A DNA stretch of 64,000 nt from an uncultured Phycisphaerales bacterium. GTDB taxonomy: Bacteria; Planctomycetota; B15-G4; CAYZWU01. Below, in pieces: positions 11,061-53,421 of the stretch; the first letter of the stretch is position 1; the number at the start of each line of letters is the position of its first letter. The translations under genes and the position numbers were made by a program. The stretch covers positions 91,066 through 155,065 of the forward strand of contig CAZIUL010000005.1 of assembly GCA_964542475.1 (NCBI GenBank), in the 5' to 3' direction. The notes beneath the pieces were generated by a model. The model was not told the origin of the DNA, did not search any database, and saw only the letters and a program-made list of their open reading frames with translations.

Positions 11061-11101
11061 TGTCCCTCCGGTTATAAAGATAATTTAATATCAGGTTCTC
11101 T

Positions 11102-11134
11102 GTCCGACTTTCTTGCCGGACTTGTCGGACTTGG
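11102..11134 (+). terminator. Possible terminator hairpin after qmoC
   Basis: GTCCGAC-(15 nt)-GTCGGAC stem followed by TTGG. This is a weak call. Confidence 0.25.
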
Positions 11135-16590: not shown

Positions 16591-16667
16591 CCATTTCATC
16601 TGCACGGCAGATGCATGGATTAGAGAAGTGAAAATCGTAAATAATGATAGATTAAGGAGTTCTCATA

Positions 16668-18028: not shown

Positions 18029-18061
18029 TCGTTGTGCCGGGCCGGTAAGGCCGGTGCGATT

Positions 18062-23419: not shown

Positions 23420-23421
23420 AG

Positions 23422-25074: not shown

Positions 25075-25450
25075 CAAGGGAAAAATCTTGTTCGGCCTGG
25101 TGATCTTTTTCGTGCTTTTGTCCATCCCCTTCTGGTATACGCTGGCAAGCGGGAAGCGGGGTTACTACCCCGAGATGGAAAAGGCTGCCAAGGGCGAAAA
25201 ATGCATCATGGAAAAACAGGAGATGATACCGGGGCACATGGGGCTCTTGAACGAATGGCGGGACCTTGTTGTGCGGGAAGGCAAGAGGACGCACACTGCT
25301 GAGGACGGGACCGAATACAAGATGAGCCTCACGAACACATGTCTTGACTGCCACCAGGACAAGAGCGAGTTCTGCGACAAGTGCCACGATTATCTCGGCG
25401 TAAAACCGTACTGCTGGGATTGCCATGTCGACCCAAAGGAGATCGAGTGA
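25067..25450 (+). CDS. dsrJ: DsrJ (triheme periplasmic cytochrome c)
   Basis: N-terminal membrane anchor. Three heme-binding motifs: CLDCH, CDKCH, CWDCH. Confidence 0.9.
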   Translation: MNDKGKILFGLVIFFVLLSIPFWYTLASGKRGYYPEMEKAAKGEKCIMEKQEMIPGHMGLLNEWRDLVVREGKRTHTAEDGTEYKMSLTNTCLDCHQDKSEFCDKCHDYLGVKPYCWDCHVDPKEIE

Positions 25451-26235
25451 TGGATGTGAACAGAAGAAGGTTTCTCAAGGTAGCGGGGGTCGGCGCGCTC
25501 GGGCTAGCGGGTGCTAAACCCGTGCTGGATGCCTTTTCCGATGAGGAAACGCACGAAAGCGCTCCTTCCAAGGATAAGAAGGGCAAACAGCACGCCGGAA
25601 AGAGGCTGGCAATGGCCATCGACCTGAAGAAGTTTGATGAAAACACTGCCAAGGCCTGCCGGGATGCCTGCCACATAACCCACAACGTTCCTGATTTCGG
25701 CAATGCAAAGGACGAGATCAAGTGGATCTGGACCGAGCCGTTCGGGCACGCGTTCCCGGAGCAGGAGCACGAGTTCATCGAGGATGCGCTCAAATCCGCG
25801 TCTGTGCCGGTGTTGTGCAACCACTGCGACAATCCGTCGTGTGTCAGGGTTTGCCCCACGCAGGCCACCTTTCGCAGGGATGACGGCATCGTGGTGATGG
25901 ACTGGCACAGATGCATCGGGTGCAGGTACTGCATGGCTGCATGCCCCTACGGATCCAGGAGCTTCAACTGGCGTGATCCCAGGGAGTTCATCGATAAGAT
26001 CGATCCGAAGTTTCCCACGCGGTCGCGAGGTGTCGTGGAGAAGTGCACCTTCTGCGACGAACGGCTGGCCGATGGCAAGGAACCCGCGTGCGTTGAGGCG
26101 TGCGGCAACGATGAGATGATATTCGGGGATGTCGAAGACCCCGAATCGAAGATACGGGAGGTGCTGAGTAAGCGTTTCTCGATCAGGCGTAAACCCGGGT
26201 TGGGTACGAAGCCGGAAGTATACTATCTCGTGTGA
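25450..26235 (+). CDS. dsrO: DsrO (Tat-exported ferredoxin-like Fe-S subunit)
   Basis: Twin-arginine signal NRRRFLKVAGVGALGLAG. Multiple CxxCxxCxxxCP clusters. The ATG overlaps the dsrJ stop (ATGA). Confidence 0.9.
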   Translation: MDVNRRRFLKVAGVGALGLAGAKPVLDAFSDEETHESAPSKDKKGKQHAGKRLAMAIDLKKFDENTAKACRDACHITHNVPDFGNAKDEIKWIWTEPFGHAFPEQEHEFIEDALKSASVPVLCNHCDNPSCVRVCPTQATFRRDDGIVVMDWHRCIGCRYCMAACPYGSRSFNWRDPREFIDKIDPKFPTRSRGVVEKCTFCDERLADGKEPACVEACGNDEMIFGDVEDPESKIREVLSKRFSIRRKPGLGTKPEVYYLV

Positions 26236-26242
26236 GGCAGAC

Positions 26243-27451
26243 ATGCTAGAAAAGGCGATGTTCGGAAGTAGAAGGTACTGGGCCTGGGTCGTTTTTCTGC
26301 TGGTGTTGATTGGAGTCGGCCTCCTATGCTATCTCCAGCAGCTTAGCCAGGGGCTTGGAATAACTGGAATGGGCAGGGACGTGACATGGGGATTCTACAT
26401 CGCCCAGTTCACCTTCCTGGTGGGTGTGGCAGCATCAGCCGTGATGGTGGTTCTGCCCTACTACCTGCATGACTACAAGGCGTTCGGCAAGCTCACCATC
26501 TTGGGGGAGTTTCTTGCCATTTCCGCTGTGATCATGTGCCTGCTGTTCATTTTCGCGGACCTGGGCCAGCCCCAGCGCGGCATGAACATGATACGGTTCA
26601 TGAGCCCCAAATCGGTCCTCTTCTGGGACATGATAGTGCTCAACGGCTACCTCGTGATCAACCTCGTGTTGAGCTGGAAGAGCCTTGACGCGGAGCGAAA
26701 CTCTGTCAAGCCTTCCGGGTGGTGGATCAAGCCGCTGATCATAGTATCGGTCCCATGGGCTATCAGCATCCACACGGTCACGGCAATGATCTACTGCGGC
26801 CTCCCCGGCCGTTCCTTCTGGTACACGGCCATCCTTGCCCCGCGCTTTCTCGCGTCGGCGTTCGCATCCGGCCCCGCGCTCCTGATACTGATCTGTTTCA
26901 TCCTGAAAAAGTTCACCAGGTTCGACGCGGGCAAGGAGCCCGTGCAGAAGCTAGCGGTAATTGCCACGTATGCGATGTTTCTAAACGTTTTCTTTTTCCT
27001 GCTCGAGGTGTTCGTGGCGGTTTACGGAGCCATCCCGGAGCACACTCAGCATTTCGAATACCTGTTCCTCGGCATCGGCGGGAAATCCAAGCTCGTGCCG
27101 TGGATGTGGATGGCCCAGTTCATCTCTGTGTTTGCGATAGTCATCTTCGCTGTTCCTCGGCTCAGAAAGAACGAGAACCTGCTGAAATGGGGGTGCATCG
27201 GCATCTTCGTCGCCATCTGGATAGACAAGGGGCTCGGCATGGTTGTGACCGGCTTCGTGCCTTCGCCGCTTGAGGGCGTGACAGAGTACTGGCCCACCTT
27301 CAGGGAGCTTTGCATCACGATCGGTGCCTATGCGGTGGGTGCGCTGATACTCACAGTGCTCTACAAGGTGGCGCTGGAGGTACGGGGAGAGGTTTGCAGG
27401 CCTTGCTGCGAAGAGGTGGAGCATGAAGCGACAAAGCAAACCGCACCATGA
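26243..27451 (+). CDS. dsrP: DsrP (NrfD/PsrC-like integral membrane quinone-interacting subunit)
   Basis: About 10 transmembrane helices, 402 aa. Position after dsrO. Confidence 0.9.
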   Translation: MLEKAMFGSRRYWAWVVFLLVLIGVGLLCYLQQLSQGLGITGMGRDVTWGFYIAQFTFLVGVAASAVMVVLPYYLHDYKAFGKLTILGEFLAISAVIMCLLFIFADLGQPQRGMNMIRFMSPKSVLFWDMIVLNGYLVINLVLSWKSLDAERNSVKPSGWWIKPLIIVSVPWAISIHTVTAMIYCGLPGRSFWYTAILAPRFLASAFASGPALLILICFILKKFTRFDAGKEPVQKLAVIATYAMFLNVFFFLLEVFVAVYGAIPEHTQHFEYLFLGIGGKSKLVPWMWMAQFISVFAIVIFAVPRLRKNENLLKWGCIGIFVAIWIDKGLGMVVTGFVPSPLEGVTEYWPTFRELCITIGAYAVGALILTVLYKVALEVRGEVCRPCCEEVEHEATKQTAP

Positions 27452-40029: not shown

Positions 40030-41709
40030 CTACGTTTCCCACGACGCCTTCATTAAGATTCCGCCCCCGAGATAGACCGCATCTTTGATCCCGTTCTCAA
40101 GCATGATCCTGGTGGATTCGGCCGAGCGAAGGCCCTTCGAACATACAAGGAGCACAGGTTTGTCCTTCGGGACCTCTTCCCACCTTTTGCGAAGCTCTTC
40201 GAGGGGGATGTTGATGATCCCATCCAGGGGGATGGGATCGTTTTCCATCTCTTCGGGCGTGCGCACATCGATGATGGTTCTGCCCCCACAATCCGCTCCA
40301 GGAGATAGCCCTTCCACTCCTTCCCGCACTGCGTTCTGCGCGGCGCATCCCAGCGAGAACAGCGGATCAACAGCCGGGGCGAACGGCGGCGCGTACGCGA
40401 ACTCCGAATCGATCAGGTCGTCGAGTCGCCCCTCTTTCTTGAGCAGCGACGCGAGCAGGTCAACCCTTTTCACCACTTCTCCCGTGCCGTACCCCTGCAT
40501 CCCCAGAAGCCTCTGAGTGCCTTTTTCGAACACGAGCTTGAGAAGCACGTTTTCCGATTCAGGGTAGTACTCAGGCCTGTCCGAAAAGGTGCCCCATGCG
40601 CATGACGCGTCAAATCCAGCCTCGGCGGCAGCTCTTTCGGTGAGCCCTGTGCACGCGACATTCAGGTCGAACACCTTGAGCGCCGCGCTTCCGACCACCG
40701 GACCGAACCCGTCCTTTTTCCCGCCGATGTTCGAGCCTGCCACGCGGCCCTGGCGGTTGGCGAGCGACCCGAGCGGCATAAGAGCCGGCTTGCCCGAGAT
40801 CGCATGCTTCACCTCGATGACGTCACCCGCAGCGTAAATGTCCGGGTCCGATGTGCGCATCTGCTTGTCAACAACGATCCCTCCGAGCTCTCCGATATCG
40901 ATGCCGCATTCGACGGCCAGGCTGTTTTGCGGTTTCACGCCAAGCGCCATCACCGCGTGGTCCGCCTCGATCGAACCGTCCTTCGTCTTGATGACAACCC
41001 CGTCTCCGGTGTCTGTGACCTCCTCCACGGGGCAGCCCGTGTGGATCTCCACGTCCTCGCTTTTCAGGTACGCTTCAACTCCGCGCGCTGTTTCCTCGTC
41101 CATTATCCCGGGCAGGATCTGCGGGGCCGCCTCGATCATTACAACCTCGGCGCCCCAGAGAGATCCGAAAGACTCGGCGAGCTCGCACCCTATGAACCCT
41201 CCTCCGATGATCCCGACCTTCCTGATTTCGCCTTTCGCGAGGGCCTTTTTGATGCTGATGGCATCGTGCAATGTTTTGAACGTTGTGATCCGCGGGCTCT
41301 TTTTTTCGACCCCCGGCAGTACATTCGGGCTCGCTCCCGCAGCGATGACAAGCTTGTCATAAGCGATCTCGGTTTCATCCTGTGTCTCGACCGCTTTGCA
41401 CAGGACTTTCCGCTCTTTCCTGTTGATGCGCTCCACCCTGGTCATGGTGAGCACTTCCAGATCCTTGGCAGCGCTGAAAAAATCGGGATCCCTGACCAGC
41501 CCGTAGGGTGTGCTGCGAAGCTTGTCGACGTTTTCGATGTCTCCGGACACGAAATACGGCATCCCGCAGGCGCCGTAGGAAATGTACGACCCCTGATCAA
41601 TTACGGTTATCTTCGCTTTACCAAGAAGCCTCCTGGCCCTGCACGCAGCGCGAAGCCCTGCTGCTGAAGCGCCTATTACAACTACTTTCAATGATCCGGT
41701 GCTCTCCAT
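40030..41709 (-). CDS. CoA-disulfide reductase-type pyridine-nucleotide disulfide oxidoreductase with C-terminal rhodanese domain (CoADR-RHD/NAD(P)H sulfur reductase-like)
   Basis: FAD motif VVIGASAAGL. Redox-active single Cys SYGACGMPYF. NAD motif GIIGGGFIGCE. C-terminal rhodanese with active Cys (LLVCSKGLRS). Confidence 0.85.
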   Translation of the reverse strand: MESTGSLKVVVIGASAAGLRAACRARRLLGKAKITVIDQGSYISYGACGMPYFVSGDIENVDKLRSTPYGLVRDPDFFSAAKDLEVLTMTRVERINRKERKVLCKAVETQDETEIAYDKLVIAAGASPNVLPGVEKKSPRITTFKTLHDAISIKKALAKGEIRKVGIIGGGFIGCELAESFGSLWGAEVVMIEAAPQILPGIMDEETARGVEAYLKSEDVEIHTGCPVEEVTDTGDGVVIKTKDGSIEADHAVMALGVKPQNSLAVECGIDIGELGGIVVDKQMRTSDPDIYAAGDVIEVKHAISGKPALMPLGSLANRQGRVAGSNIGGKKDGFGPVVGSAALKVFDLNVACTGLTERAAAEAGFDASCAWGTFSDRPEYYPESENVLLKLVFEKGTQRLLGMQGYGTGEVVKRVDLLASLLKKEGRLDDLIDSEFAYAPPFAPAVDPLFSLGCAAQNAVREGVEGLSPGADCGGRTIIDVRTPEEMENDPIPLDGIINIPLEELRKRWEEVPKDKPVLLVCSKGLRSAESTRIMLENGIKDAVYLGGGILMKASWET

Positions 41710-41929
41710 CTCTGCTCTCCTTGATCAACAGGTTTCCAGGTTATTTCGTTTTCATAAATGCCAGATATTGCTTGACATTTGTTGCCAGAATTTTAATTTT
41801 GATCTTTTCTTCTGTACATCTTGGGTTATGACTTCGATTCGGTCAAGACCCGGTTTTGTATTATTGTAACTTGCGACTGCCAAAGGTGTTGCATTATTCT
41901 CGGTTCATAAGGACGGTACTGGTGACAGC

Positions 41930-42337
41930 ATGACCATCAAAATCACAGGCAAAACACACGATCTGGATTTCAGCGCAAAAATCGCGGAAATCTGCGGGGA
42001 AAACATCCACAAGTGCATGCAGTGCGGAACCTGCACGGGCGGCTGCCCAATGACAGGTGAAATGGATGTAACGCCCCGGAAGATGATGCTGCTTTCGCAC
42101 ATGGGCATGAAGGAAGAGGTTTCCGGATCGAACACGGTGTGGCTATGCGCCACATGCAACACCTGTTACGCGCGATGCCCGCGCGGGCTGGACATCCCGA
42201 AGATCATGGAAGCCATCCGCCAGATCAGGCTCAGGGCAAACGAGAACCACGTCGAGCCGAACAAGATCTCAAAAGAGGTGCTTCGCAAGGCACCGCAGAT
42301 CGCCATGGTAAGCTGTTTTCGCAAGCACACCTCATGA
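41930..42337 (+). CDS. hdrC: Heterodisulfide reductase subunit C-like (2x[4Fe-4S])
   Basis: CMQCGTCTGGCP and CATCNTCYARCP motifs. Confidence 0.8.
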   Translation: MTIKITGKTHDLDFSAKIAEICGENIHKCMQCGTCTGGCPMTGEMDVTPRKMMLLSHMGMKEEVSGSNTVWLCATCNTCYARCPRGLDIPKIMEAIRQIRLRANENHVEPNKISKEVLRKAPQIAMVSCFRKHTS

Positions 42338-42354
42338 TTTGATCGAGGAAGTAA

Positions 42355-43239
42355 ATGAAGGTTTCATACTATCCCGGCTGCACGTTGAAGACCAAGTCGA
42401 AGAACCTGGAGAAGCCAGGCATCGCCGCGATGGAAGCGCTGGGCGTGGAGCTCGTCGAGCTCGAACGCTGGAACTGCTGCGGAGTCGTTTATTCCCTGTC
42501 GGATGACGACCTTCTCAAGGTGGTAGCCCCGGTCCGCGACCTGATCAGGGTTGCCGAAGAGGGGTACGACAAGGTCGTGACAATGTGCTCCATGTGCTAC
42601 AACACACTCGCCCGCGCGAACCTTCTGATGCGCACCGACGAGGAAAAGCGCAAAACCCTGAACGACTTCATGGAAGAGGAGCCCGACTACTCAGGCGAGG
42701 TGGAGGTGCTCCATCTGTTGAACTTTCTCCGCGACGAGATCGGCTGGGACAAGGTCAAGGCAGCGGTAAAGGTTCCGCTCGACGGCTTGAAGGCGGCCCC
42801 GTTCTACGGGTGTACCCTTGTCAGGCCTGAAGAGGTTGCCATCGATTCGGCGGAGAACCCGAGGTTCATGCACGATCTCCTGTCCGCCCTTGGTGCATCC
42901 ACGGTCGACCTGCCAAACGGAACCGATTGCTGCGGCGCCTACCAGATGATTAGCCACCCGGATGCCTCCATTAAAGCCGTCGCCAACATCATCGGTCCCG
43001 CTGAAAAACGCGAAGCGGATGCGGTAGTGACCGCATGCCCGCTCTGCGAGTACAACCTCGGAATGCAGCAGTCCGCTGTTCTCGAGAAGCACAGCGATCT
43101 CAAAGCTGTTCCGACCTTTTATTTCACACAACTCATGGCTGTTGCCATGGGTGTTGATGCCCAAGAATGCTGTTTTGGTCTGAACATGCCGGGCGCGAAA
43201 GAGCTGCTCGAAGAAAAGAAGTACCTCGTATCCGCGTGA
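42355..43239 (+). CDS. hdrB: Heterodisulfide reductase subunit B-like (two CCG domains)
   Basis: CCG-domain cysteines: WNCCG…MCSMCYN and DCCGAY…CPLCEYN. Confidence 0.85.
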   Translation: MKVSYYPGCTLKTKSKNLEKPGIAAMEALGVELVELERWNCCGVVYSLSDDDLLKVVAPVRDLIRVAEEGYDKVVTMCSMCYNTLARANLLMRTDEEKRKTLNDFMEEEPDYSGEVEVLHLLNFLRDEIGWDKVKAAVKVPLDGLKAAPFYGCTLVRPEEVAIDSAENPRFMHDLLSALGASTVDLPNGTDCCGAYQMISHPDASIKAVANIIGPAEKREADAVVTACPLCEYNLGMQQSAVLEKHSDLKAVPTFYFTQLMAVAMGVDAQECCFGLNMPGAKELLEEKKYLVSA

Positions 43240-43332
43240 CGCGCTTGTTTTCATCGAACAGGCAAACGAATGACGAAAAGGTTTATTTTTACAAGACTTT
43301 AACAAGAGTTCATTGAACCACAGAGGTAGCAA

Positions 43333-44073
43333 ATGAGTCCGACCACCGAGATTACCGAGGATCTGCTTCCCATTTACATCATGGGAAAAAAGTATGATGT
43401 GCCCCCGTCGCTCACCATCATGAAGGCGATGGAGCACGCGGGCTACCAGTTCGTGCGAGGCTGCGGCTGCCGCGGCGGAATCTGCGGTGCCTGCGGCACT
43501 GTCTACCGCCTTCCCGGAGATTATCACATCCGCGTGGGGCTGGCGTGCCAGACCGTTGTCCAGGCGAACATGTACCTGACGCAGATCCCGTTCTATCCGG
43601 CGAACAGGGCCGAGTACGATTTCGATAAGACCAAGGGCGACGCGGAGGATGTTTTCGAAGCCTACCCCGAGCTCTTCAGGTGCGTGGCCTGCAACGCCTG
43701 CACCAAGGTGTGCCCGATGGATGTCCAGGTCATGGACTACATCGCCGCAATCAAGAGGGGCGACCTCGAGAAGGCGACCGATCTTTCCTTTGACTGCATC
43801 CAGTGCGGGCTCTGCACGACCAGGTGCATGGGAGAGCTGCCCCAGTACCACATCGCCCAAATGGTCCGCCGCATCGCGGGCGCAAGGCTCGCACCTGTTT
43901 CCAAGCATTGCGACGAGATGGTGGACCAGATCAAGGGAGGCAGATACAAGGAGCACCTTGCCAAGCTCAAAGAGATGGGCGAGGACGAGCTCAAGGAGCT
44001 TTACAAGGCGCGCGAAAACGAACCCGCTCTTGCGGAAGAGATGTGGGAGCCAAAGGAAAAAACGTACCTGTAG
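43333..44073 (+). CDS. Succinate dehydrogenase/fumarate reductase iron-sulfur subunit-like ([2Fe-2S] plus [4Fe-4S]/[3Fe-4S])
   Basis: CGCRGGICGACG (2Fe-2S). CVACNACTKVCP and CIQCGLCTTRC ferredoxin motifs. Confidence 0.75.
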   Translation: MSPTTEITEDLLPIYIMGKKYDVPPSLTIMKAMEHAGYQFVRGCGCRGGICGACGTVYRLPGDYHIRVGLACQTVVQANMYLTQIPFYPANRAEYDFDKTKGDAEDVFEAYPELFRCVACNACTKVCPMDVQVMDYIAAIKRGDLEKATDLSFDCIQCGLCTTRCMGELPQYHIAQMVRRIAGARLAPVSKHCDEMVDQIKGGRYKEHLAKLKEMGEDELKELYKARENEPALAEEMWEPKEKTYL

Positions 44074-44219
44074 ACAAGACCGCCATCAGGCGGAACCCGT
44101 CGATGCCTGCTGGAATGCGTACGCGGCATCGAGCCCGTTCGATAGGGCATCCGCGGGATTTCTGCCGGGGCTGTATAAGTGTTGAATCGATCCGTTTTTG
44201 AAGAAACGATAGAGAAAGG

Positions 44220-45899
44220 TTGACAATGCCGTATCCTGAATCACTCAAGGGTTACATCAAGAAAGTCGAAGAGACCAGGCCGTTACGCGTGGAGCGCAAG
44301 AAGAAGGACGAAGAGGTCCCCTTCATGTCTCTGGAGGAGCGCGCCGAAATATTAAAAAAATTCCATCCCGATGCCAAGGAGGAAGGCCGCCGCGAGATAA
44401 AGGTCGGGCCGTCCAAGGGTTACGGGATCGCGCACGAGATGGTGGATCTCCTGGAAGCCAAAAGCCGGGTCGATCCGGCGAAGGTGGATTTGAGTAAGCC
44501 GGAGCATGAAACCGACGTGCTGATCATCGGAGGCGGCGGCGCGGGCAGCTCCGCGGCGCTACTGGCACAGGAGCAGGGCGCCAAGGTGACAATCGTCACG
44601 AAGCTTCGCCACGGCGATGCGAACACCATGATGGCTGAAGGCGGGATTCAGGCCGCAACCAAGGGGGAAAAGGATTCGCCGTACTGCCACTACCTGGATG
44701 TAATGGGCGGCGGACACTTCAAGAACGTTCCCGAGCTGGTGGAAGGGCTTGTGACCGAAGCGCCTGACGTGATCAACTGGCTTCTGAAGCTGGGATGCAA
44801 CTTCGACAAGTTCGATGACGGCAGGTTGAGAACGCTTCACGGCGGGGGAACATCGCGCAAGCGCATGCACTCGGCCGCCGACATCACCGGCGCCGAGATG
44901 ATGCGTACGGTGCGCGACGAGGTCCGCAACCGCTCATCCGACATTAAGGTCATCGAGTTCGCACCCGCGGTCGAGCTGATTCTCAACGAGCACGGCCACT
45001 GCGCGGGCGCTGTCTTGTACAACATGGATACCGAGGAGTACTTCTTTGTCAAGGCCAAGGCCGTGATCATGGCCACCGGCGGGAGCGGAAGGCTTCACAT
45101 ACAGGACTTCATGACAACAAACCACTACGGCGCCACTGCCGACGGGATCATCATCGCTTACAGGGCGGGCGTGCCCGTCTGCTTCCTGCACACGGTGCAG
45201 TACCATCCGACCGGGGTGATCTTCCCCGAGCAGGCGGAAGGGATTCTCATCACGGAGAAGTTCCGCGGCGCCGGGGCCAACATACTGAACGTCAATGGAG
45301 AGCAGTTCGTGAACGAGCGTGAACCCCGCGACGTGGAGGCTGCCGCGTTCATCAGGGAATGCACGGAGCGCGGGCTCGGCGTGCCCACTCCCACGGGCAA
45401 GGCGGGCGTGTGGCTCGACAGCCCGATGATCGACGATCTGAGCGGCGAAGGGTTCGTGGAGATGAACTTCCGCGGGAAGCACATCCTGTACGACCGTTTC
45501 GAGATCGACATCTCCAAGGAGCCGATGCTGGTTTACCCAACGCTTCACTATCAGAACGGCGGCCTGGAGTTCAAGAAGGACGGCACAACCTGCCTGCCCG
45601 GGCTTTACGTTGCCGGCGAGGTCGGCGGCGGGATACACGGAGAAAACAGGCTCATGGGCAATTCGCTGCTCGACATCATGGTCTACGGCCGTATCTCCGG
45701 CAAGAGCGCCGGCGAGTACGCCAAGGGTTCGGCAAAGGACGGCGCGCTATCGCTCGCGCACGTGGAAAAGTACAACAAGGAGCTCGATGAAGCGGGGGTC
45801 GGCCTCGACCGCGTGGCCCCAATGCTTCTGCCCGACTACACGCTCCAGCAGGTGAAAGATAAGCAGCTCACCAGCAAATACCTCGGAACCATGCGGTAG
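44220..45899 (+). CDS. Fumarate reductase/succinate dehydrogenase flavoprotein subunit-like (TfrA-like)
   Basis: FAD motif VLIIGGGGAGSSAAL. Conserved HxxGG and HYxxGG elements of the FRD/SDH/L-aspartate-oxidase family (LHTVQYHPTG). Confidence 0.8.
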   Translation: MTMPYPESLKGYIKKVEETRPLRVERKKKDEEVPFMSLEERAEILKKFHPDAKEEGRREIKVGPSKGYGIAHEMVDLLEAKSRVDPAKVDLSKPEHETDVLIIGGGGAGSSAALLAQEQGAKVTIVTKLRHGDANTMMAEGGIQAATKGEKDSPYCHYLDVMGGGHFKNVPELVEGLVTEAPDVINWLLKLGCNFDKFDDGRLRTLHGGGTSRKRMHSAADITGAEMMRTVRDEVRNRSSDIKVIEFAPAVELILNEHGHCAGAVLYNMDTEEYFFVKAKAVIMATGGSGRLHIQDFMTTNHYGATADGIIIAYRAGVPVCFLHTVQYHPTGVIFPEQAEGILITEKFRGAGANILNVNGEQFVNEREPRDVEAAAFIRECTERGLGVPTPTGKAGVWLDSPMIDDLSGEGFVEMNFRGKHILYDRFEIDISKEPMLVYPTLHYQNGGLEFKKDGTTCLPGLYVAGEVGGGIHGENRLMGNSLLDIMVYGRISGKSAGEYAKGSAKDGALSLAHVEKYNKELDEAGVGLDRVAPMLLPDYTLQQVKDKQLTSKYLGTMR

Positions 45900-45970
45900 G
45901 TGGCAGGAGGGGCACGGCAAGCATCCGGTTCCGAACAGGCGGATCCACGCGCTTCACTATTGCTGAACCT

Positions 45971-48100
45971 TTGTATCGAGGGCATACCATGGACTCTTTC
46001 CAGCTTGGTTTCGAAGAGGGAAAAAAACTGCTAGAACCGTACGGGATCCCGATCCTCGGACAAGTTGCAGCGTCAAGGGATGAAGCTCTGGCTGCCGCGG
46101 GCGAGCTGGGTTACCCGGTGGCGCTCAAATCCGTGTCCGAGAAGATCATCCACAAGACCGACGTTGGAGTGGTGTTTCTCGATCTCGTGAACGAGGCCGC
46201 TGCAGGGGATGCCTACGACAAGATCGTAGACAACGCGAGGCGGGCGGGCGCAGGCGAGCTGGACGGCGTTCTTGTGCAGAAGATGGCCAAATCGGGCTTT
46301 GAGCTGCTCGTGGGCGCCAAGCAGGACGCATGTTTCGGCACAGTGACCATGGTGGGTCACGGCGGCCGTTTCGTGGAGCTGTTCGAGGACGTGGCGCCCG
46401 GAGTCGGAGTTCTCACTCGCGAAGATGTGCTCCGCATGCTCTCGCACACAATGGCCGGCAGGATACTCGATGGCTTCCGCGGCCCGCCGCTTGACATGGA
46501 AGCGGTCGTCAGCCTTGCAATAAACGTATCCAGGTTCATGGATGAAAATCCTGAAATCCACGAGCTGGACCTGAACCCGGTCCTCGTGTACGAAAGCGGT
46601 TTCGCTGTTGTGGACGCCCGCCTGATCAAAGGCGATGCCGTTGAGTCCGCCCGCTGCACCGACCTTTCCGAAACACGCATGAAGAGCCTCGACTCGGTGT
46701 TCAACCCCGGATCCGTAGCTGTTGTCGGGGCATCCAGGCACGGCACGATCGGGGGGATCATCCTCAAAAACTCGAGCCGGGTCAAAAAGCTCTATCCCAT
46801 AAATCCGCGGTACAAGGAGCTGCTCAAAAGGCCGTGCTATCCGTCTTTGTCCAGCCTTACGGAAACCCCTGATGTGGGGGTCTTCGTGACAGGCGCGGAG
46901 AACGCGGTGAAGAGCTTCGAGGATTTCTGCGAAGCCGGAGGCAAGGGCGCGATCATCGTGAGCGACGGGTTTGCCGAGATCGGCAGGAGCGACCTCGAAG
47001 AGGAGCTCAAACGGATAAGCGTCAAGCACGATGTCGTGTATATCGGGCCCAACTGCCTCGGCGTGATCGACAACTTCTCCGGGCTGAACACGCTTTTTAT
47101 CCCGGAGCAGAGAACAGCCTCGCTTCGAGAACCGTGCGGGTTGGGGATTATTTCCCAGAGCGGCGGGATCGGTCTCGAGTTTCTGGAGATGCTGGAAGCT
47201 GACAACCTTTCGGTCGGCAGATGGATTTCCTGCGGGAACGCGAGCGGCGTGGACCTGGCCGAGATCTTGGCCCACATGGGTGACGATGACCGGATCGATA
47301 CGATAGCCCTGTACCTGGAAGGCATCAAGAACGGTCTCGGTTTCATGGAGGTTGGAAAGAGGGTGAGCCGCGGGAAGCCGGTGATCGTGATCAAGGGCGG
47401 GGTCGGCGGGGGGGCCGCAGCCACGATGTCGCACACCGCATCGCTCGCCGGGAGCTTCCAGGCGTTCAAGGCGTGCTGCGACCAGGCCGGTTTTTTTCTG
47501 GTCGAGGAGCTGACAGAGGATCCGAAGATCCTGATCAACATCATATCCATTCTCTCAACACAGCCCAGAGCCAATGGGAACCGCGTGGCGGTTGTCAGCG
47601 TGGGCGGAGGAGCTGCAATACTTCTCGCGGACCAGGTCACCGAGGAGGGAATGGAGCTTGCCGAGTTCGAGCCGGACACGGTGAAGAGTTTCCAGGGGCT
47701 ACTGGGTGCGAAAGCCAAAGAAGCATCGCCAGCAGAGAGGGATCGGATCATTGCGCGGCTCGGCAACAACCCGGTGGATCTTTTCGGCGAGTGCGATGAC
47801 GAGCGCCTGCTCGAGGCGATCAGAATCCTGGACCGGGATCCGAACACCGATATCATCCTCGTGGGACTTTACCTTCAGGTGCCGTACCTGTCCGAGTACC
47901 TCACGGAGCGTCTCGTGGACCTGAACCTGGAAATTACAAAACCGCTGATAATCTCGCCGCGCGGGTTCTCAAAGCACGTGCTCAGATCCCGGGAGTACCT
48001 CTACTCCAAGGATTTCCAAACCTACACGGTTCCCATGGTAAAGCCGTTAGCCATCGCCACAAAGATATGGCAGAGGTACGAGACCGATTTCACGCGGTAG
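45971..48100 (+). CDS. NDP-forming acyl-CoA synthetase, fused beta-alpha (ATP-grasp domain followed by CoA-binding/ligase domains; ACD/succinyl-CoA-synthetase-like)
   Basis: ATP-grasp N-half (ALKSVSEKIIHKTDVGVV). CoA-binding SVAVVGAS. The phospho-His region is in the C-half (GHTASLAG-like MSHTASLAG). Confidence 0.8.
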   Translation: MYRGHTMDSFQLGFEEGKKLLEPYGIPILGQVAASRDEALAAAGELGYPVALKSVSEKIIHKTDVGVVFLDLVNEAAAGDAYDKIVDNARRAGAGELDGVLVQKMAKSGFELLVGAKQDACFGTVTMVGHGGRFVELFEDVAPGVGVLTREDVLRMLSHTMAGRILDGFRGPPLDMEAVVSLAINVSRFMDENPEIHELDLNPVLVYESGFAVVDARLIKGDAVESARCTDLSETRMKSLDSVFNPGSVAVVGASRHGTIGGIILKNSSRVKKLYPINPRYKELLKRPCYPSLSSLTETPDVGVFVTGAENAVKSFEDFCEAGGKGAIIVSDGFAEIGRSDLEEELKRISVKHDVVYIGPNCLGVIDNFSGLNTLFIPEQRTASLREPCGLGIISQSGGIGLEFLEMLEADNLSVGRWISCGNASGVDLAEILAHMGDDDRIDTIALYLEGIKNGLGFMEVGKRVSRGKPVIVIKGGVGGGAAATMSHTASLAGSFQAFKACCDQAGFFLVEELTEDPKILINIISILSTQPRANGNRVAVVSVGGGAAILLADQVTEEGMELAEFEPDTVKSFQGLLGAKAKEASPAERDRIIARLGNNPVDLFGECDDERLLEAIRILDRDPNTDIILVGLYLQVPYLSEYLTERLVDLNLEITKPLIISPRGFSKHVLRSREYLYSKDFQTYTVPMVKPLAIATKIWQRYETDFTR

Positions 48101-48175: not shown

Positions 48176-48208
48176 GCCGCAGCAGAAGAGTATGAAATAA
48201 GCGGGCTA
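48176..48208 (-). repeat. Family A 3'-end element, copy 4 (truncated; contains the TAG stop of the gene at 48206..48991)
   Basis: GCCGCAGCAGAAGAGTATGAAATAAGCGGGCTA. Confidence 0.65.
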
Positions 48209-48991
48209 CAGCCCCAGCGCTTTGATCTCCTGTTCGAAACGGGAAGGGTTTATCTCCAGAAGCCAGCCTTCGCCGTATGAATCCTGGAGTACTTCTTCAG
48301 GATCCGCGAGCACCTTTTCGTTCACCTTTACCACGCTGCCGGAGAGAGGGGACCAGATCACGTGCGACCTCAGGTCCGCTGTGAACAGCTGCAGGCACAT
48401 GCTTCCCTGGCGGAGTTCGTCGCCGACCGAGGGCATGTCCACGGTCAGTACCTTGCCGATCATGAGAAGGAACGGGCGTTCAACCCCGATGAGCACGTTG
48501 CCGCTCTTCCGGCGCATCATCCAGGTGTGCCCGCCGATTCCATTGAACGCGTTGGCCGGCTTCCGCTCGCCTCTTCCGATGAACTCTTCGGGTTCAGCCG
48601 CTGTCCCGGCTCCTTCCCCGCCAACGAGCTGGGCCGCGCGTTTCACAACCCCCCTCAGCTCCGACTTGGTGAACGGCTTGGAAACATAGTCGAACGCGCC
48701 GAGCTGCATGGCCTGGAGCGCGGTGTTGATGGTGGCGTACCCCGTGACCATGATGATGGGGATCCCTGCATGCTTCGACTTGACCTCCTTCATGAGCTCC
48801 AGCCCGTCCATATCAGGCATCATCAGATCCGTCAGGATGATATGAACCGTTTCCTTTTTCAGGATTTTGAGCGCGTCCTCGGCGGACAGCACCTTGAACA
48901 CTTTGTCCGTGTCCTGTCTCAGGTGCCTCTCAGCGCTGTCGAGCACGATCTGTTCGTCGTCAACCACTAAAATGTTCAATTCTGTTTCCAT
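48206..48991 (-). CDS. Response regulator: CheY-like receiver fused to a GcvH-like (glycine-cleavage H / lipoyl-domain fold) C-terminal domain that lacks the lipoyl-lysine
   Basis: Receiver: VVDDE…D(54)LMMPDMDG…K. C-terminal SPLSGSVVKVNEKVLADPEEVLQDSYGEGWLLEI matches the GcvH C-terminus, but the ESVKA lipoylation site is replaced by TADLRS. Confidence 0.8.
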   Translation of the reverse strand: METELNILVVDDEQIVLDSAERHLRQDTDKVFKVLSAEDALKILKKETVHIILTDLMMPDMDGLELMKEVKSKHAGIPIIMVTGYATINTALQAMQLGAFDYVSKPFTKSELRGVVKRAAQLVGGEGAGTAAEPEEFIGRGERKPANAFNGIGGHTWMMRRKSGNVLIGVERPFLLMIGKVLTVDMPSVGDELRQGSMCLQLFTADLRSHVIWSPLSGSVVKVNEKVLADPEEVLQDSYGEGWLLEINPSRFEQEIKALGL

Positions 48992-49051: not shown

Positions 49052-50881
49052 CTACCGGGCCGGCGGCAGAACGATCCGGAAGATCGCTCCTTCGTTTTCC
49101 GCAGTGTCCACTTCTATCACGCCGCGATGGCGTTCCACTATACCCCAACTCACGGCCAGCCCAAGCCCGCTCGTCTCCTTGGAAGAAAAAAACGGTTCGA
49201 AAATTTTGTCGATCATGTTCTCCGGGATGCCGGGGCCGGTGTCCTCCACCGAGATGACGCACTTGTTCTGATTGCGATCGTATTCGGTTTTCAACGTAAT
49301 CGTGCCTTTTTCCTTCATCGCATCCAGGGCGTTCAGCATGAGGTTCAAAACCACCTGCTGAAGCTGGGATGGATCTGCACGGATGAGCGGCAGCTCCTCG
49401 GCTTTTTTCATCTCAAGAGTAACGTTTTTGAACCTGGGCAGCTTTTCCACCAGTGAAAGAGTTTTATCCACAATGCTGTTCGCATCCGTTTTTTCAAACC
49501 TGGGTGTTTCCTGTTTCGCGAAATCCAGCAGGTTCCGCACGATGTCTCTGCAGCGCAGGGTTTCCCTGATGATGACTTTGACATCATTGTGAAGGTCGCT
49601 GTCTTCGGGAACCTCCTCAAGGATGCTTTCGGCAAAGGCGAGCACCCCTGTCAGGGGGTTGTTGATCTCGTGAGCCACACCGGCTGCGAGCTTGCCCACT
49701 GCGGCGAGCTTGGTGGACTGGACCAGCTTGTCCTGGAGCTGCTTCTTCACTGTGACATCGCGAGCAATTGTACACACCCCCGTGGCTTTGCCCTTGTAGT
49801 CCGGCAGGGGAAACCGCACAGTGTTGAAGTGCCGGTTCTGTTCGTTGATCTGGAAGGTCTCCTCGTATGTGCGGTGAACGTTTTTTTTCATTACCTCCCG
49901 GTCGTTGCGGTCCACGATCATGGCGACTCCCTCGGGCAGGACCTCCTCGACCTTTTTTCCAATGAAATCCTTTTTCTCGAGGCCGTATGCTTTGGCAATG
50001 GTCTTGTTTACCACCAGGTAGCGCCCTTCCAGATCCTTGATGCAGATGTGATCCATGGCTGCGTCGATGAACCGCCTGAAACGTTCCTCCGCGCGCTCGA
50101 TTTCGCGCCGAAGCATGACCCGCTCGGTTATGCGGTGCCATGTTTCTATGACCGCCTCGATGTCGCCCCGCTCGTTCTTGATGGGAGTCTGCGTTACCTC
50201 CCAGAAAGATTCCGCCGGTGATATGCTTTGGTGTACGCTGCTCAACGGTTTACCCGATGCAAACACCTTGTCGAGGTTGCAGGCCGCGTACAGGCAGTCG
50301 ATTGCAAGGTTCGTGCTCTGGAACAGCTCGAAACATTGCTTGCCGATGGCGTCTTTCTGGGGGATGCCCGTGTATTCCGTGAACCTTGCGTTTGTCCGTA
50401 TCACCTTTCTCTCTTTGTTCAGCACCATGACAAGGTCAGGGATGCTGTCGAACAGGCTTTGGATGTACAGCTGCTCCTTCTCGACCTCCTGCTTCAGCTC
50501 GGTCTTTTCCGCAAGCCTTCGTTCCTGTTCCGCCTGGGCGTTTGCCAGGTCCCAGAAGATGTGAGCGAACGTGTGGTCAATGAGCTTGGCACCGCGCGGG
50601 AGGTTCTGAATTATCTTGTCCAGCACGGCGTTGCTGCCTGTGAGCTCGATTATGAGCTCTATGTCCGGAATGGAAAGGGCCGCGGCCATGTCGTTCGTAG
50701 TCTTCATGCCGTGCGATTTCGCATAGGCAAGCCCGGGCGCGTCATGATCGAGGTCCATCACGCAGATGACATCCAGGATCATTTCTTTGAGAAAAGCTCC
50801 CCTGGCAAGATCAAGGATGGCCTGGCAGCCTTTTCCTCCGCCTATGATAACGGTTTTCATGCGAGCGAGTTCCCCAACCAA
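49052..50881 (-). CDS. Cytoplasmic sensor histidine kinase: N-terminal Rossmann-like domain, two PAS domains, HisKA, HATPase
   Basis: N-terminus VIIGGGKGCQAIL. H-box AAGVAHEINNPL. G-boxes DTGPGIP…GLGL. The likely start is MKTVIIGG at about 50860. Adjacent and co-oriented with the response regulator. Confidence 0.85.
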   Translation of the reverse strand: MVGELARMKTVIIGGGKGCQAILDLARGAFLKEMILDVICVMDLDHDAPGLAYAKSHGMKTTNDMAAALSIPDIELIIELTGSNAVLDKIIQNLPRGAKLIDHTFAHIFWDLANAQAEQERRLAEKTELKQEVEKEQLYIQSLFDSIPDLVMVLNKERKVIRTNARFTEYTGIPQKDAIGKQCFELFQSTNLAIDCLYAACNLDKVFASGKPLSSVHQSISPAESFWEVTQTPIKNERGDIEAVIETWHRITERVMLRREIERAEERFRRFIDAAMDHICIKDLEGRYLVVNKTIAKAYGLEKKDFIGKKVEEVLPEGVAMIVDRNDREVMKKNVHRTYEETFQINEQNRHFNTVRFPLPDYKGKATGVCTIARDVTVKKQLQDKLVQSTKLAAVGKLAAGVAHEINNPLTGVLAFAESILEEVPEDSDLHNDVKVIIRETLRCRDIVRNLLDFAKQETPRFEKTDANSIVDKTLSLVEKLPRFKNVTLEMKKAEELPLIRADPSQLQQVVLNLMLNALDAMKEKGTITLKTEYDRNQNKCVISVEDTGPGIPENMIDKIFEPFFSSKETSGLGLAVSWGIVERHRGVIEVDTAENEGAIFRIVLPPAR

Positions 50882-51558: not shown

Positions 51559-51948
51559 CTAATGATAGTCATGTGTCTGCTGCACCACCTTCACGCCTGT
51601 TTTGTTTTCTATGTACTTCGCCATGTCGTCCGCGCTGGCGTAGGGGCATTCCGGCATGGCTTTCACCATGCAGGTGCTCATGTACACCGCATCAGGCTTG
51701 GTTTCGGACTGTTTTATGTTCAGCCCAATGTTCGGCGGGGTGGAGCGCCCGGGGCACTGGCACCTTACGAAACCGATGACGCGTGCTTCCTCGTCGAAGT
51801 TGCCTTCGCCGAGCGCGGCCGCTTTCAGGCAGCGCCACTCTCCGGGGCAGCCGTAGCCCGAGTCCATGTAAGCTCCGCATCCGACTACTATCACGTTTTT
51901 CATCTGTTTATCCTTGGTTTGATTGAAAGAGCCTGCTGCTTTGCTCAA
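51559..51948 (-). CDS. CGGC-domain protein (Cys-rich, redox/Fe-S-like)
   Basis: VVGCGAYMDSGYGCPGEWRC…CQCPG…CPYA. The likely start is MKNVIVVG at about 51900. Confidence 0.65.
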   Translation of the reverse strand: MSKAAGSFNQTKDKQMKNVIVVGCGAYMDSGYGCPGEWRCLKAAALGEGNFDEEARVIGFVRCQCPGRSTPPNIGLNIKQSETKPDAVYMSTCMVKAMPECPYASADDMAKYIENKTGVKVVQQTHDYH

Positions 51949-51977: not shown

Positions 51978-52556
51978 TTATTTGGTAAGAAACCGATCCA
52001 GGACCTTCTTCGATTGCGCTTCCACTGTTTCGTGGATGCTGTTTCCATGGGTGTCCATGGTCACGATCACGGGGAACTCCTTCGCTTGTACGACCCAGAA
52101 CGCTTCAGGGGTTCCGAGCTCTTCAAGCAGGTGGACATCGAGCACCTCCTCTATTGCCACTGCTGTAGAGGTCCCGCAGCCGCCCACCGCATGGAAGTAA
52201 ACAGCGCCGAGCCTTTGGCACGCTTCCATGGTCTTTTTCCCCATGCCGCCCTTGCCGATCACGCCGCGCACACCGTAGCTTTCGATGACCTTTGCCTGGT
52301 ACGGCTCTTCGCGTATGCTCGTGGTGGGGCCGGCGGCAACGAAAGACCACTTGCCGTCCTCGTTCTTTACAACCGGGCCGCAGTGATAGATCACGCCTTG
52401 GGCGAGAAGGTCGTCCAAGAAGTCCGGGCGCTCTTCAACCATCAGCTTGTGAGCAGCGTCGCGTGCGGTCACCATGACGCCGGAGAGAAGCACCGTGTCC
52501 CCTACCTTCAGGGATCTGATTTTTTCATCGGATATGGGAATGTCTATTTTAATCAT
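51978..52556 (-). CDS. fumB: Class I (Fe-S) fumarate hydratase, beta subunit (C-terminal domain type)
   Basis: Fe-S hydro-lyase beta fold (…GPTTSIREEPY…GKGGMG…). Overlaps the alpha subunit gene by 8 nt. Confidence 0.85.
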   Translation of the reverse strand: MIKIDIPISDEKIRSLKVGDTVLLSGVMVTARDAAHKLMVEERPDFLDDLLAQGVIYHCGPVVKNEDGKWSFVAAGPTTSIREEPYQAKVIESYGVRGVIGKGGMGKKTMEACQRLGAVYFHAVGGCGTSTAVAIEEVLDVHLLEELGTPEAFWVVQAKEFPVIVTMDTHGNSIHETVEAQSKKVLDRFLTK

Positions 52557-53421
52557 AGCTGGCTTCTCCGTTTTTACACGTCATTGTTTTCCGCCTGCAT
52601 GCCCAGCACATGTAGGAGACCGAAACATAGAAGGTGGCGGGATGGCGGTGTTGCTTGGCAGCAAAAACGTTGAGCACCGTGGTTTTTCCGCCGAACCCCA
52701 TGGGACCTATTCCAAGCTCGTTGAGCTCGGTCAACAGCCTGTTTTCGAGATTTGCCAGGTCGGGATCCAGGTTGACCGAGTCGAACTTCCGGAAGAACTG
52801 CTCCTTGCCGAGCATGTATGAGGTAGTGCGGTCGCCCCCGATGCCGACGCCGATAATGCCCGGGCTGCACCCTTTGCCCTGGGCCTTGAACACGGCGTCG
52901 AGCACACACCTCCTGACACCGTCGAGATCGCGTCCCGCGCCCAGCGCCGCGTCGGGAAGCTTGTACTGGGCGCTCACGTTTTCGCTGCCCCCTCCCTTTT
53001 GCATGAGCTTGACCAGGGTCTGGTCCTTGTCCCATTGTTTGAACGAGACATAGGGCGTGTTGACGCCTACGTTGTTCCCCGTGTTTTTGCCTGTGACAGG
53101 GTCAACCGCGTTCGGCCTGAGCAACAGATCCTTTGTGGCCCTTTCTGCCGCGGCCTCCACGGCCTTCCGGAACATGACGGTGTCGGTTCCCTGTGGATGA
53201 TACACGTAAAGTATGAGCGATCCCGTGTCCTGACAGATGGGAGTCACCGCTTCTCTGGCCATCTCGACGTTGTCAAGTATTGCCTGGAAGGTGTTGGCCG
53301 GCGTGGATCCGGCCTCCTCCTTTGCCAGGGCTTCCTGCAGCGCGGCTTCCACATCGTGTGACAGGTCGGTGCTCGAACTTTTTATCAGGTGATAAAGCTG
53401 GTTGACAACTGTTTCGTTCAT
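52549..53421 (-). CDS. fumA: Class I (Fe-S) fumarate hydratase, alpha subunit
   Basis: Conserved CQDTGS Fe-S ligand region and catalytic-domain blocks. Gene pair arrangement as in two-subunit class I fumarases. Confidence 0.85.
   Translation of the reverse strand: MNETVVNQLYHLIKSSSTDLSHDVEAALQEALAKEEAGSTPANTFQAILDNVEMAREAVTPICQDTGSLILYVYHPQGTDTVMFRKAVEAAAERATKDLLLRPNAVDPVTGKNTGNNVGVNTPYVSFKQWDKDQTLVKLMQKGGGSENVSAQYKLPDAALGAGRDLDGVRRCVLDAVFKAQGKGCSPGIIGVGIGGDRTTSYMLGKEQFFRKFDSVNLDPDLANLENRLLTELNELGIGPMGFGGKTTVLNVFAAKQHRHPATFYVSVSYMCWACRRKTMTCKNGEASYD

Follow-up and report, generated by a model that had tools for sequence, protein, structure and literature searches.

What kind of enzyme do four adjacent genes on a contig from an uncultured Phycisphaerales bacterium encode, and from where would it take its electrons? 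The genes, in the order hdrC-hdrB-frdB-frdA, span positions 41930-45899 on the plus strand of the 64,000-nucleotide stretch analyzed here (contig CAZIUL010000005.1, positions 91,066 to 155,065 of the forward strand, GenBank assembly GCA_964542475.1; the whole stretch is hereafter called the window), and they combine homologs of the heterodisulfide reductase (Hdr) subunits HdrC and HdrB with homologs of the iron-sulfur (Fe-S) and flavoprotein subunits of fumarate reductase. Textbook fumarate reductases are either membrane-bound and quinol-dependent or, as the archaeal thiol:fumarate reductase (Tfr), thiol-dependent. With confidence a little better than even, we read the cassette as a cytoplasmic, anchor-less fumarate reductase that is fed through HdrCB, and we place the neighboring gene for a coenzyme A (CoA)-disulfide reductase outside the system. 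The assignment as a fumarate reductase follows from intact active-site residues, a FrdA/SdhA fold match and the homology of the Fe-S subunit to SdhB/FrdB; the donor is the less certain part and is weighed below.

Organization and conservation of the cassette

All seven genes that a first-pass annotation had named at this locus were recovered in place or nearly so. The hdrC-like gene (41930-42337; 135 amino acids; Pfam Fer4_17/Fer4_8; two CxxCxxCxxxCP motifs) comes first and is followed by an hdrB-like gene (42355-43239; 294 amino acids; two Pfam CCG domains), a frdB-like gene for a short, divergent protein of SdhB/FrdB type that we call FrdB' (43333-44073; 246 amino acids; Fer2 and Fer4 domains) and the gene for the frdA-like flavoprotein FrdA' (44226-45899; 557 amino acids), in which FAD_binding_2, at residues 97-481, was the sole domain detected. 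The ATG at 44226, behind a GAAAGG ribosome-binding site, was taken as the frdA start, and a TTG at 44220 was rejected. Within the core, neighboring genes lie 17, 93 and 152 nt apart; a further 89 nt separate frdA from the gene for a fused beta-alpha ADP-forming acyl-CoA synthetase. A promoter and terminator scan gave nothing decisive and found no terminator-like site on the plus strand from hdrC to the end of the synthetase gene. The 152-nt frdB-frdA spacer holds a GC-rich hairpin, CCGCC-ATCA-GGCGG without a U-tract (44080-44093), whose role may lie in mRNA processing or stability and not in termination.

A scan for the flavoprotein in one genome per species returned 588 relatives, and the loci of the best 80 were compared, neighbors being counted by tblastn. 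Sixty-eight of these 80 had enough upstream sequence for gene order to be assessed, and in 62 of the 68 the four genes were adjacent and in the same order, across at least 12 phylum-level lineages; four of the other six carried insertions and the last two were truncated forms of the insertion variant. Identity to the window proteins across loci ranged from 72-85% for FrdA and 58-75% for FrdB to 52-65% for HdrB and 46-69% for HdrC, and the hdrC-like gene was kept in every one of the 62 adjacent cassettes. Because the same order recurs in so many other genomes, the four-gene core is a real unit, far beyond chance. The first-pass annotation had allowed for the case that the HdrCB-like genes belong to a stray, unrelated Flox/Hdr complex; they do not, as they were always found together with frdBA.

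The best 80 loci were metagenome-assembled genomes (MAGs) throughout. Those of Phycisphaerales/Planctomycetota were closest to the window (FrdA 84-85% identical), and the other host groups included Ignavibacteria, Zixibacteria/GN15, Gemmatimonadota, Acidobacteriota, Myxococcota, Thermodesulfobacteriota/Syntrophaceae, Dehalococcoidia, Krumholzibacteriia, Eiseniibacteriota, LCP-89 and others. The best 120 matches of each protein search and the cluster look-ups gave only MAG or metagenome names and no cultured host of the cassette. Beyond the four genes, no widely shared neighbor was found in the flanks of the 80 loci, and no membrane-anchor gene lay within the cassette in any of the 62 loci. An additional stand-alone cassette (L095/L096) sits on a 69-kb contig with unrelated housekeeping genes around it. 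In four Desulfobacterales-type loci (L006, L008, L013 and L018) inspected by eye, genes for a PlsC-like acyltransferase and a crotonase-like protein were seen upstream of the cassette, and paired subunits resembling 2-hydroxyacyl-CoA dehydratase/benzoyl-CoA reductase downstream.

The flavoprotein subunit

The flavoproteins of this family are at present annotated as 'FAD-binding protein' or as generic 'SdhA/FrdA', and FrdA' fits none of the curated models fully. The best-scoring of these was the TfrA equivalog NF004900, on which FrdA' reached 318.5 bits against a cutoff of 718 and matched only model positions 6-419 of 546, whereas a genuine TfrA (P0181) reaches 765 bits. Scores were 277 bits on the generic SdhA/FrdA model (cutoff 567), 257.6 bits on the NadB model TIGR00551 (cutoff 452.75) and 218 bits on MFR_Fp_SdhA (cutoff 1100). 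Every curated-model match ended at about position 420, and thus the C-terminal domain of SdhA and TfrA is absent from FrdA'; Pfam detected no Succ_DH_flav_C domain in it. At the other end of the protein, a conserved extension of ~90 residues precedes the Rossmann fold. In an AlphaFold2 model (predicted TM-score, 0.76; mean predicted local distance difference test [pLDDT] score, 70) this N-terminal extension was structured, with pLDDT values of 70-89, and the top fold matches of the model were 1kf6_A (Escherichia coli FrdA) and 7d6v_A (Mycobacterium smegmatis Sdh1 SdhA).

FrdA' was aligned to E. coli SdhA, FrdA and NadB, to TfrA P0181, to Mycobacterium Sdh1-type proteins and to NadB representatives. 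The equivalents of FrdA residues H232, T244, E245, R248, R287, H355 and R390 were kept in the window protein as well as in 11 family members and 9 deep relatives, save that the T244 equivalent was Ser in three of the 9. The position of His44, which binds flavin adenine dinucleotide (FAD) covalently in FrdA, was Asn in all of these proteins and Gly in TfrA P0181. Variants of FrdA at His44 hold FAD non-covalently and support fumarate reduction and not succinate oxidation. Given this established chemistry and the Asn at the covalent-FAD position, FrdA' is predicted to bind FAD non-covalently and would act as a one-way fumarate-to-succinate reductase.

The first-pass annotation had suggested a phylogeny of the flavoprotein against TfrA, SdhA, FrdA and NadB. 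In a neighbor-joining tree of 79 sequences (495 columns, 100 bootstraps), the FrdA' family formed its own clade (support 100), which was joined by deeper relatives that share the N-terminal extension (support 72) and lay nearest to two unlabeled sequences (P0255 and P0257) and then to a larger group that includes TfrA and the Sdh1-type proteins. The clade stood apart from NadB and from E. coli SdhA/FrdA. L-Aspartate oxidase (NadB) was ruled out as an identity, since the column of the NadB-specific Glu121 is Gly across the FrdA' family, the family lies outside the NadB clade, the NadB score is well short of its cutoff and FrdA' is always paired with an FrdB homolog. More broadly, the flavoprotein might act on another substrate, as L-aspartate oxidase, urocanate reductase and other FAD_binding_2 enzymes do; the SdhA, FrdA, TfrA and NadB models all stay below cutoff, and the architecture, with its extension at the N terminus and no C-terminal domain, is unusual. 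We nevertheless consider a different substrate very improbable, because the residues for fumarate/succinate binding and proton transfer are all conserved, the NadB features are missing, the partner is an SdhB/FrdB homolog, and genes for succinyl-CoA synthetase (sucCD) and fumarase recur as neighbors.

Iron-sulfur subunits and predicted solubility

A search with the single sequence of FrdB' barely matched SdhB. When a 28-sequence FrdB' profile was compared by hhalign with classical SdhB/FrdB, the match reached a probability of 96.7% (E = 4.7e-10) over 146 collinear columns that cover the 2Fe-2S domain and both cluster motifs. The motifs run in the order SdhB-type 2Fe-2S, CxxCxxCxxxCP and CxxCxxCxxxC, and 12 Cys residues were invariant in 28 homologs (C46, C51, C54, C72, C117, C120, C123, C127, C155, C158, C161 and C165). 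Because the third motif has four Cys, a [4Fe-4S] cluster is predicted where classical enzymes carry [3Fe-4S].

The HdrB-like protein carries two complete CCG motifs with ten Cys in total (C9..C41C42..C78xxC81 and C153..C192C193..C228xxC231), is expected from these motifs to bind two non-cubane [4Fe-4S] clusters and aligned over its full length with the solved methanogen HdrB chains 8rvu_b, 7bkb_B and 5odc_B (E from 1e-32 to 3.5e-37). It scored 168 bits on the HdrB model TIGR03288 (cutoff 345) and 156 bits, full-length, on the MFR SdhE model NF042965 (cutoff 500). The HdrC-like protein, with motifs C29xxC32xxC35xxxC39P and C73xxC76xxC79xxxC83P, reached 87 bits on the NCBIfam model of the QmoC N-terminal region and 80 bits on HdrC (cutoff 160), both below cutoff. 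On the TfrB model NF004898 (cutoff 385), the HdrC-like protein, the HdrB-like protein and FrdB' scored just 30.6, 38.8 and 23.9 bits, respectively, and on these model scores the first two are true HdrC and HdrB types rather than fragments of TfrB. No transmembrane (TM) helix, signal peptide or twin-arginine motif was predicted in any of the four proteins, the maximum Kyte-Doolittle value over a 19-residue window was 1.36 across the four, and no hydrophobic or obviously amphipathic anchor segment specific to the HdrB-like protein was found.

The same subunits could also make up a type-E-like quinol:fumarate reductase, in which the HdrB-like protein would act as SdhE/MfrE and HdrC and HdrB together as a split GlpC/GlcF/HdrD, and the enzyme would be menaquinol-driven, monotopic and respiratory rather than soluble. 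The near-equal, full-length MFR_anch_SdhE and HdrB scores speak for it, as does the four-Cys motif of FrdB' at the place of the [3Fe-4S] motif, an exchange that type E SdhB also shows. SdhE is described as a monotopic anchor lacking TM helices (PMC2754724), and an identical gene content led to the assignment of the frdABEF genes of Syntrophobacter fumaroxidans to type E (PMC3570798). Against this, the flavoproteins of type E and MFR enzymes have their full length and carry the covalent-FAD His, whereas FrdA' has Asn and no C-terminal domain; an HdrC-like Fe-S protein is present instead of an SdhF-like subunit; and no anchor segment distinguishes the HdrB-like protein. In addition, FrdB'-FrdA' orthologs (72-73% identity) sit with soluble HdrA-MvhD and distant relatives (46%) with NuoF, as set out below, and a classical sdhB is already present near the cassette in four Ignavibacteria loci, in two of which (L009 and L043) a second flavoprotein gene lies beside it. 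Taken with this evidence on both sides, a quinol-linked respiratory enzyme appears unlikely to us.

Modularity of the catalytic pair

An exhaustive search over 1.8 billion cluster representatives extended the flavoprotein family to deeper relatives of 39-56% identity, which keep the N-terminal 'HPDy...G.NkG' extension and are without the C-terminal domain and without His44. These occur in varied settings: marine gammaproteobacterial MAGs (L086/L087) carry the order frdB'-frdA'-nuoF-like at 46% identity (L086:6366-9891), another locus encodes a fused FrdB'-FrdA' of 727 amino acids (L085:5250-7433), and in L088 and L089 the relative stands with a small Fe-S protein or alone. One deeper relative (P0285) comes from Prochlorococcus sp. 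MIT 1201; like the flavoproteins of L086 and L085, it falls within 43-49% identity and has the same N-terminal motif.

Closer to the window, a variant of Syntrophaceae/Thermodesulfobacteriota, found in 5-6 loci (L064, L066, L079, L048 and L080; e.g., L079:439-12001), has the order hdrC-hdrB-hdrA-mvhD, a gene for an FrhB/FdhB-like Fe-S protein, and then frdB-frdA-sucC-sucD; its HdrA is duplicated and has ~1020 amino acids. The flavoprotein type of this variant is abundant in metagenomes, one of its 90% sequence clusters having 111 members. FrdA of the variant is 72-73% identical to that of the window and HdrB and HdrC only 34-46%, which shows the same catalytic pair joined to a different Hdr lineage. 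In the Phycisphaerales locus L003 (531-5453, minus strand), whose FrdA is 84% identical, the cassette is preceded by two divergent genes, one for an 831-residue NuoE-NuoF fusion with an extra ferredoxin domain and the other for a 660-residue Fe-S protein with an MvhD/FlpD domain; as a pair they might serve as an NADH input module. That FrdB'-FrdA' is found together with a NuoF-like protein in some loci and beside an HdrA-MvhD insertion in others indicates that the electron input is interchangeable, and FrdB'-FrdA' would then be a portable catalytic module into which lineages plug different input modules.

These arrangements bring flavin-based electron bifurcation into view, and the Syntrophaceae-type operon is a candidate fumarate-linked, bifurcating Hdr complex. 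Applied to the window, HdrCB-FrdB'A' would be the high-potential arm of such a complex, with fumarate in place of the heterodisulfide, so that ferredoxin and fumarate would be reduced together; the donor would be of mid potential (NADH, an F420H2-like compound or H2), entering through a separately encoded module of HdrA, MvhD, Flx or NuoEF type, and HdrB would serve as a relay to FrdB'. Both the hdrA-mvhD operon and the divergent genes of L003 point this way, as does the invariable retention of HdrC, without which Tfr manages. Yet 62 cassettes, that of the window included, have no gene for HdrA, MvhD or an NAD(P)H-binding protein in the operon and have unrelated flanks, and the only HdrA-like genes in the window are QmoA- and QmoB-like ones, recognized by Pfam only and located beside apr-dsr. 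The HdrCB of the variant is, as noted, of another lineage. To our knowledge, moreover, the CCG clusters of every characterized Hdr-type enzyme form the terminal catalytic site and not a relay. The same idea has been published for Endoriftia and Thioflavicoccus (PMC6315080, PMC11636981, PMC13147460); for the window cassette we hold bifurcation to be distinctly unlikely.

Comparison with known systems

The first-pass annotation had described the cassette as TfrAB split into pieces, and this holds for the domain and cofactor content and the lack of an anchor but not for the proteins themselves, which fall well short of the TfrA (318 versus 718 bits) and TfrB (24-39 bits) models. Like the cassette, TfrAB of methanogens (Methanothermobacter; Heim et al. 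1998, cited in PMC6315080) is cytoplasmic and without a membrane anchor, its flavoprotein lacks the covalent-FAD His (Gly in TfrA, Asn in FrdA'), and it has the same cofactor set, an FrdB-type [2Fe-2S] and two [4Fe-4S] clusters with two CCG domains; an anabolic role in a reductive tricarboxylic acid (TCA) branch is plausible for both. The differences are in construction: TfrA keeps the C-terminal domain and is without the N-terminal extension, the reverse of FrdA', and TfrB is a single fused polypeptide with no HdrC equivalent, whereas the cassette specifies three separate Fe-S proteins, one of them HdrC-like, and a CCG protein of HdrB type (168 bits on HdrB versus 39 bits on TfrB). The donor of Tfr is coenzyme M plus coenzyme B (CoM-SH and CoB-SH), and the hosts of the cassette are bacteria, in which neither thiol is expected.

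In type E succinate:quinone oxidoreductase and methylmenaquinol:fumarate reductase (MFR) (SdhABEF of Sulfolobus/Acidianus; MfrABE of Campylobacter/Wolinella), a CCG subunit likewise replaces the heme-containing anchor, and an extra Cys in the FrdB/SdhB subunit likewise provides for a second [4Fe-4S] cluster. Their flavoproteins are full-length with covalent FAD, unlike FrdA', and they have SdhF or no fourth subunit where the cassette has an HdrC-like protein with two [4Fe-4S] clusters; MFR, in addition, is periplasmic. With HdrABC-MvhAGD the cassette shares the complete cluster motifs of the HdrB- and HdrC-like subunits and the full-length alignment to solved HdrB. Equivalog cutoffs are unreached here (HdrB, 168 versus 345 bits; HdrC, 80 versus 160 bits), the HdrC-like protein is short at 135 amino acids, HdrA is absent from the window cassette and the 62 adjacent cassettes, and where HdrABC-MvhAGD has a hydrogenase as partner, the cassette has a fumarate reductase dimer.

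Two further published gene sets resemble the cassette. In Ca. Endoriftia, the Escarpia symbiont and Thioflavicoccus mobilis, the reductive TCA cluster contains a putative frdB and a putative frdA, followed by hdrC, hdrB, korDABC, hdrA and flxDCBA; for the pair, which they name tfrAB, Rubin-Blum et al. (2019) offer two proposals, thiol cycling or a bifurcation that goes directly to fumarate and to 2-oxoglutarate synthase (PMC6315080). According to Mitchell et al. (2024), this tubeworm-symbiont cluster is co-expressed with the exception of tfrAB (PMC11636981), and a 2026 survey lists the 'incomplete AB-type' fumarate reductases of reductive TCA autotrophs as still unexplained (PMC13147460). Compared by gene list, the same four gene types are adjacent there and an Hdr-fed fumarate reductase has also been proposed; the order, unlike in the window, is frdB-frdA-hdrC-hdrB, embedded with korABCD, hdrA and flxABCD, and no Endoriftia or Thioflavicoccus name appeared among the best 120 matches of each protein search. 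The second set, FrdABEF of S. fumaroxidans (Sfum_4092-4095), is an anchor-less Frd with a Cys-rich FrdE in which Fe-S clusters have been attributed to FrdE and FrdF (PMC3570798), and its abundance is 11- to 45-fold higher in cells grown on fumarate (PMC8691401; PMC5947623). Published accounts place it in type E and assume a membrane/quinone link, and we liken it to the cassette by its description. On such descriptions, both sets are probably the same kind of enzyme as the cassette, and if FrdABEF is orthologous, its induction by fumarate is the only physiological evidence for the family. The literature search turned up no paper on a stand-alone four-gene cassette, on its phylogenetic breadth or on the unusual flavoprotein architecture, and the cassette is only partly anticipated in print.

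Electron flow and donor

In the mechanism that we favor for the anchor-less fumarate reductase, a cytoplasmic donor would deliver electrons through the HdrCB module, from which they would reach the FAD via seven Fe-S clusters as judged from the motifs: two [4Fe-4S] in HdrC, two non-cubane [4Fe-4S] in HdrB, and one [2Fe-2S] plus two [4Fe-4S] in FrdB'. The enzyme would serve a reductive TCA branch that leads from malate via fumarate and succinate to succinyl-CoA, as Tfr does in methanogens.

Three kinds of donor were weighed. Our single best guess, put forward tentatively and by analogy with Tfr, is a dithiol that would be oxidized at the CCG site of HdrB; what speaks for it is the overall Tfr-like logic, together with a FAD predicted to be non-covalent and a flavoprotein clade close to that of TfrA, and the dithiol might, at a guess, be a protein such as DsrC, the host being sulfur-metabolizing, or a low-molecular-weight thiol other than CoA. 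Almost as likely, and possible in our view, is a redox protein that docks on HdrC, either ferredoxin or a separate HdrA/MvhD/NuoEF module, because HdrC is always retained although Tfr needs none and because variants with HdrA and NuoF exist. Menaquinol, oxidized at a monotopic HdrB-like subunit as in type E/MFR enzymes or GlpC/GlcF modules, is a more doubtful third candidate drawn from analogy.

Several observations weigh against the soluble, HdrCB-fed fumarate reductase as we picture it. No thiol carrier or thiol-recycling enzyme is present in the cassette or among its conserved neighbors, and the presence of HdrC in 62 of 62 cassettes, when Tfr works without it, means that electrons may enter via HdrC and not from a thiol at HdrB. 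The low identity of HdrCB (34-46%) keeps the HdrA-containing operon from being simply extrapolated to the window cassette. The gap between the HdrB score of the HdrB-like protein (168 bits) and its score on the quinol-linked MFR SdhE model (156 bits) is small, and the lack of a TM helix is compatible with monotopic membrane binding. The AlphaFold2 model of FrdA' is mediocre at a mean pLDDT of 70, and every cassette homolog found is from a MAG or metagenome.

Flanking genes

On the minus strand upstream of hdrC lies the gene for a CoA-disulfide/persulfide reductase with a C-terminal rhodanese domain (CoADR-RHD; 40030-41709; Pfam Pyr_redox_2, Pyr_redox_dim and Rhodanese, with NCBIfam matches), divergent as the first-pass annotation had described it. 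Its best solved relatives are 6pfz, 8a56 (CoA-persulfide reductase), 3icr and 3nta, with which both the redox Cys and the rhodanese Cys align. Downstream, the fused acyl-CoA synthetase reported by the same annotation is present at 45989-48100 on the plus strand, belongs to the ACD family (ATP-grasp_5, CoA_binding, Succ_CoA_lig and Ligase_CoA_2) and has as its best solved relative 9y43, a 3-hydroxypropionate-CoA ligase [ADP-forming].

The first-pass annotation had joined these genes into one module, in which a CoA-SH-dependent thiol:fumarate reductase would be served by CoADR-RHD as the recycling enzyme and would pass succinate on to the fused synthetase. In the window, and in identical metagenome contigs, the three gene sets do adjoin, CoADR-RHD is of the genuine CoA-disulfide/persulfide reductase type, and the ACD gene follows frdA after 89 nt with no terminator-like site between them. 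Nevertheless, CoADR-RHD and the fused synthetase were each found in 0 of the 80 loci, at relaxed thresholds too, including the three closest Phycisphaerales loci (84-85% identity); the CoADR gene is on the opposite strand; and the dsr/apr/sat/qmo set of the window gives a persulfide reductase an obvious independent role. CoADR-RHD is thus a local neighbor and not part of the cassette unit, and in this window it fits the large sulfur gene set instead; the synthetase may be co-transcribed with the cassette here and is not a conserved partner of it. What ties CoA-SH and recycling by CoADR to the cassette is adjacency in this one genome, and we regard the CoA-thiol module as scarcely credible. A variant of the propionate/succinate pathway had also been suggested, and no propionate-pathway context was seen.

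A class I fumarase of two subunits (51978-53421, minus strand; alpha, 52549-53421; beta, 51978-52556; Fumerase and Fumerase_C, with TIGR00722 and TIGR00723 above cutoff) had been placed ~4 kb downstream and was found 3.9 kb off, on the opposite strand and behind a two-component system; it probably supplies the fumarate substrate. In the compared loci, sucCD adjoins the cassette in 9 of 80, and in the Dehalococcoidia locus L074 the fumarase beta gene lies immediately 3' of frdA; these arrangements make a link of the cassette to succinyl-CoA formation plausible.

Between the synthetase and fumarase genes, a fusion of a response-regulator receiver domain with a GcvH-like domain, an unusual output domain, is encoded at 48206-48991 on the minus strand, and the gene beside it is that of a PAS histidine kinase (49052-50881). 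Asp stands where GcvH has its lipoyl-lysine, which makes lipoylation of the domain improbable; the fusion was considered as a lipoyl-protein donor comparable to LbpA of sHdr and was rejected on that account and because it is not a conserved neighbor. A CGGC-domain protein (51559-51948, minus strand) is encoded between the two-component system and the fumarase genes.

Sulfur gene set and other features of the window

Upstream of the cassette, Pfam matches trace a complete dissimilatory sulfur gene set over positions 2182-27451 of the window. It comprises genes for an H+-pyrophosphatase (2182-4296, minus strand), ATP sulfurylase (4734-5972), an AprA-like flavoprotein (6643-8529), QmoC-, QmoA- and QmoB-like proteins (9891-15107), of which the QmoB-like one has a C-terminal MvhD/FlpD domain, DsrA and DsrB (15385-17759), a DsrN-like protein (18032-19462), a DsrL-like protein (19318-21177), and DsrM, DsrK, a DsrO-like Fe-S protein and DsrP (22385-27451). 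With its closest FrdA homologs in Phycisphaerales MAGs, the host may be a planctomycete that reduces sulfate or oxidizes sulfur. At the end of the window, a Ser/Thr-kinase domain is fused to WD40 repeats (62500-63954, plus strand), a combination typical of Planctomycetota.

Implications

Fumarate reduction is a core step of anaerobic metabolism, of the reductive TCA cycle and of succinate/propionate fermentation, and beside the quinol-dependent and the archaeal thiol-dependent enzymes the cassette represents a third, putative solution that is common across at least 12 bacterial phyla. The identity of its donor would alter how carbon and electron flow are reconstructed from MAGs of Zixibacteria, Ignavibacteria, Planctomycetota, Acidobacteriota, Desulfobacterota and others, and would settle the recent question about 'incomplete AB-type' fumarate reductases in reductive TCA autotrophs (PMC13147460). 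Were the donor an Hdr-type bifurcating module, the enzyme would catalyze a new energy-conserving reaction, the reductive TCA branch would yield low-potential electrons for anaerobes in a dozen phyla, and the family would constitute an unrecognized, very widespread class of flavin-based electron bifurcation.

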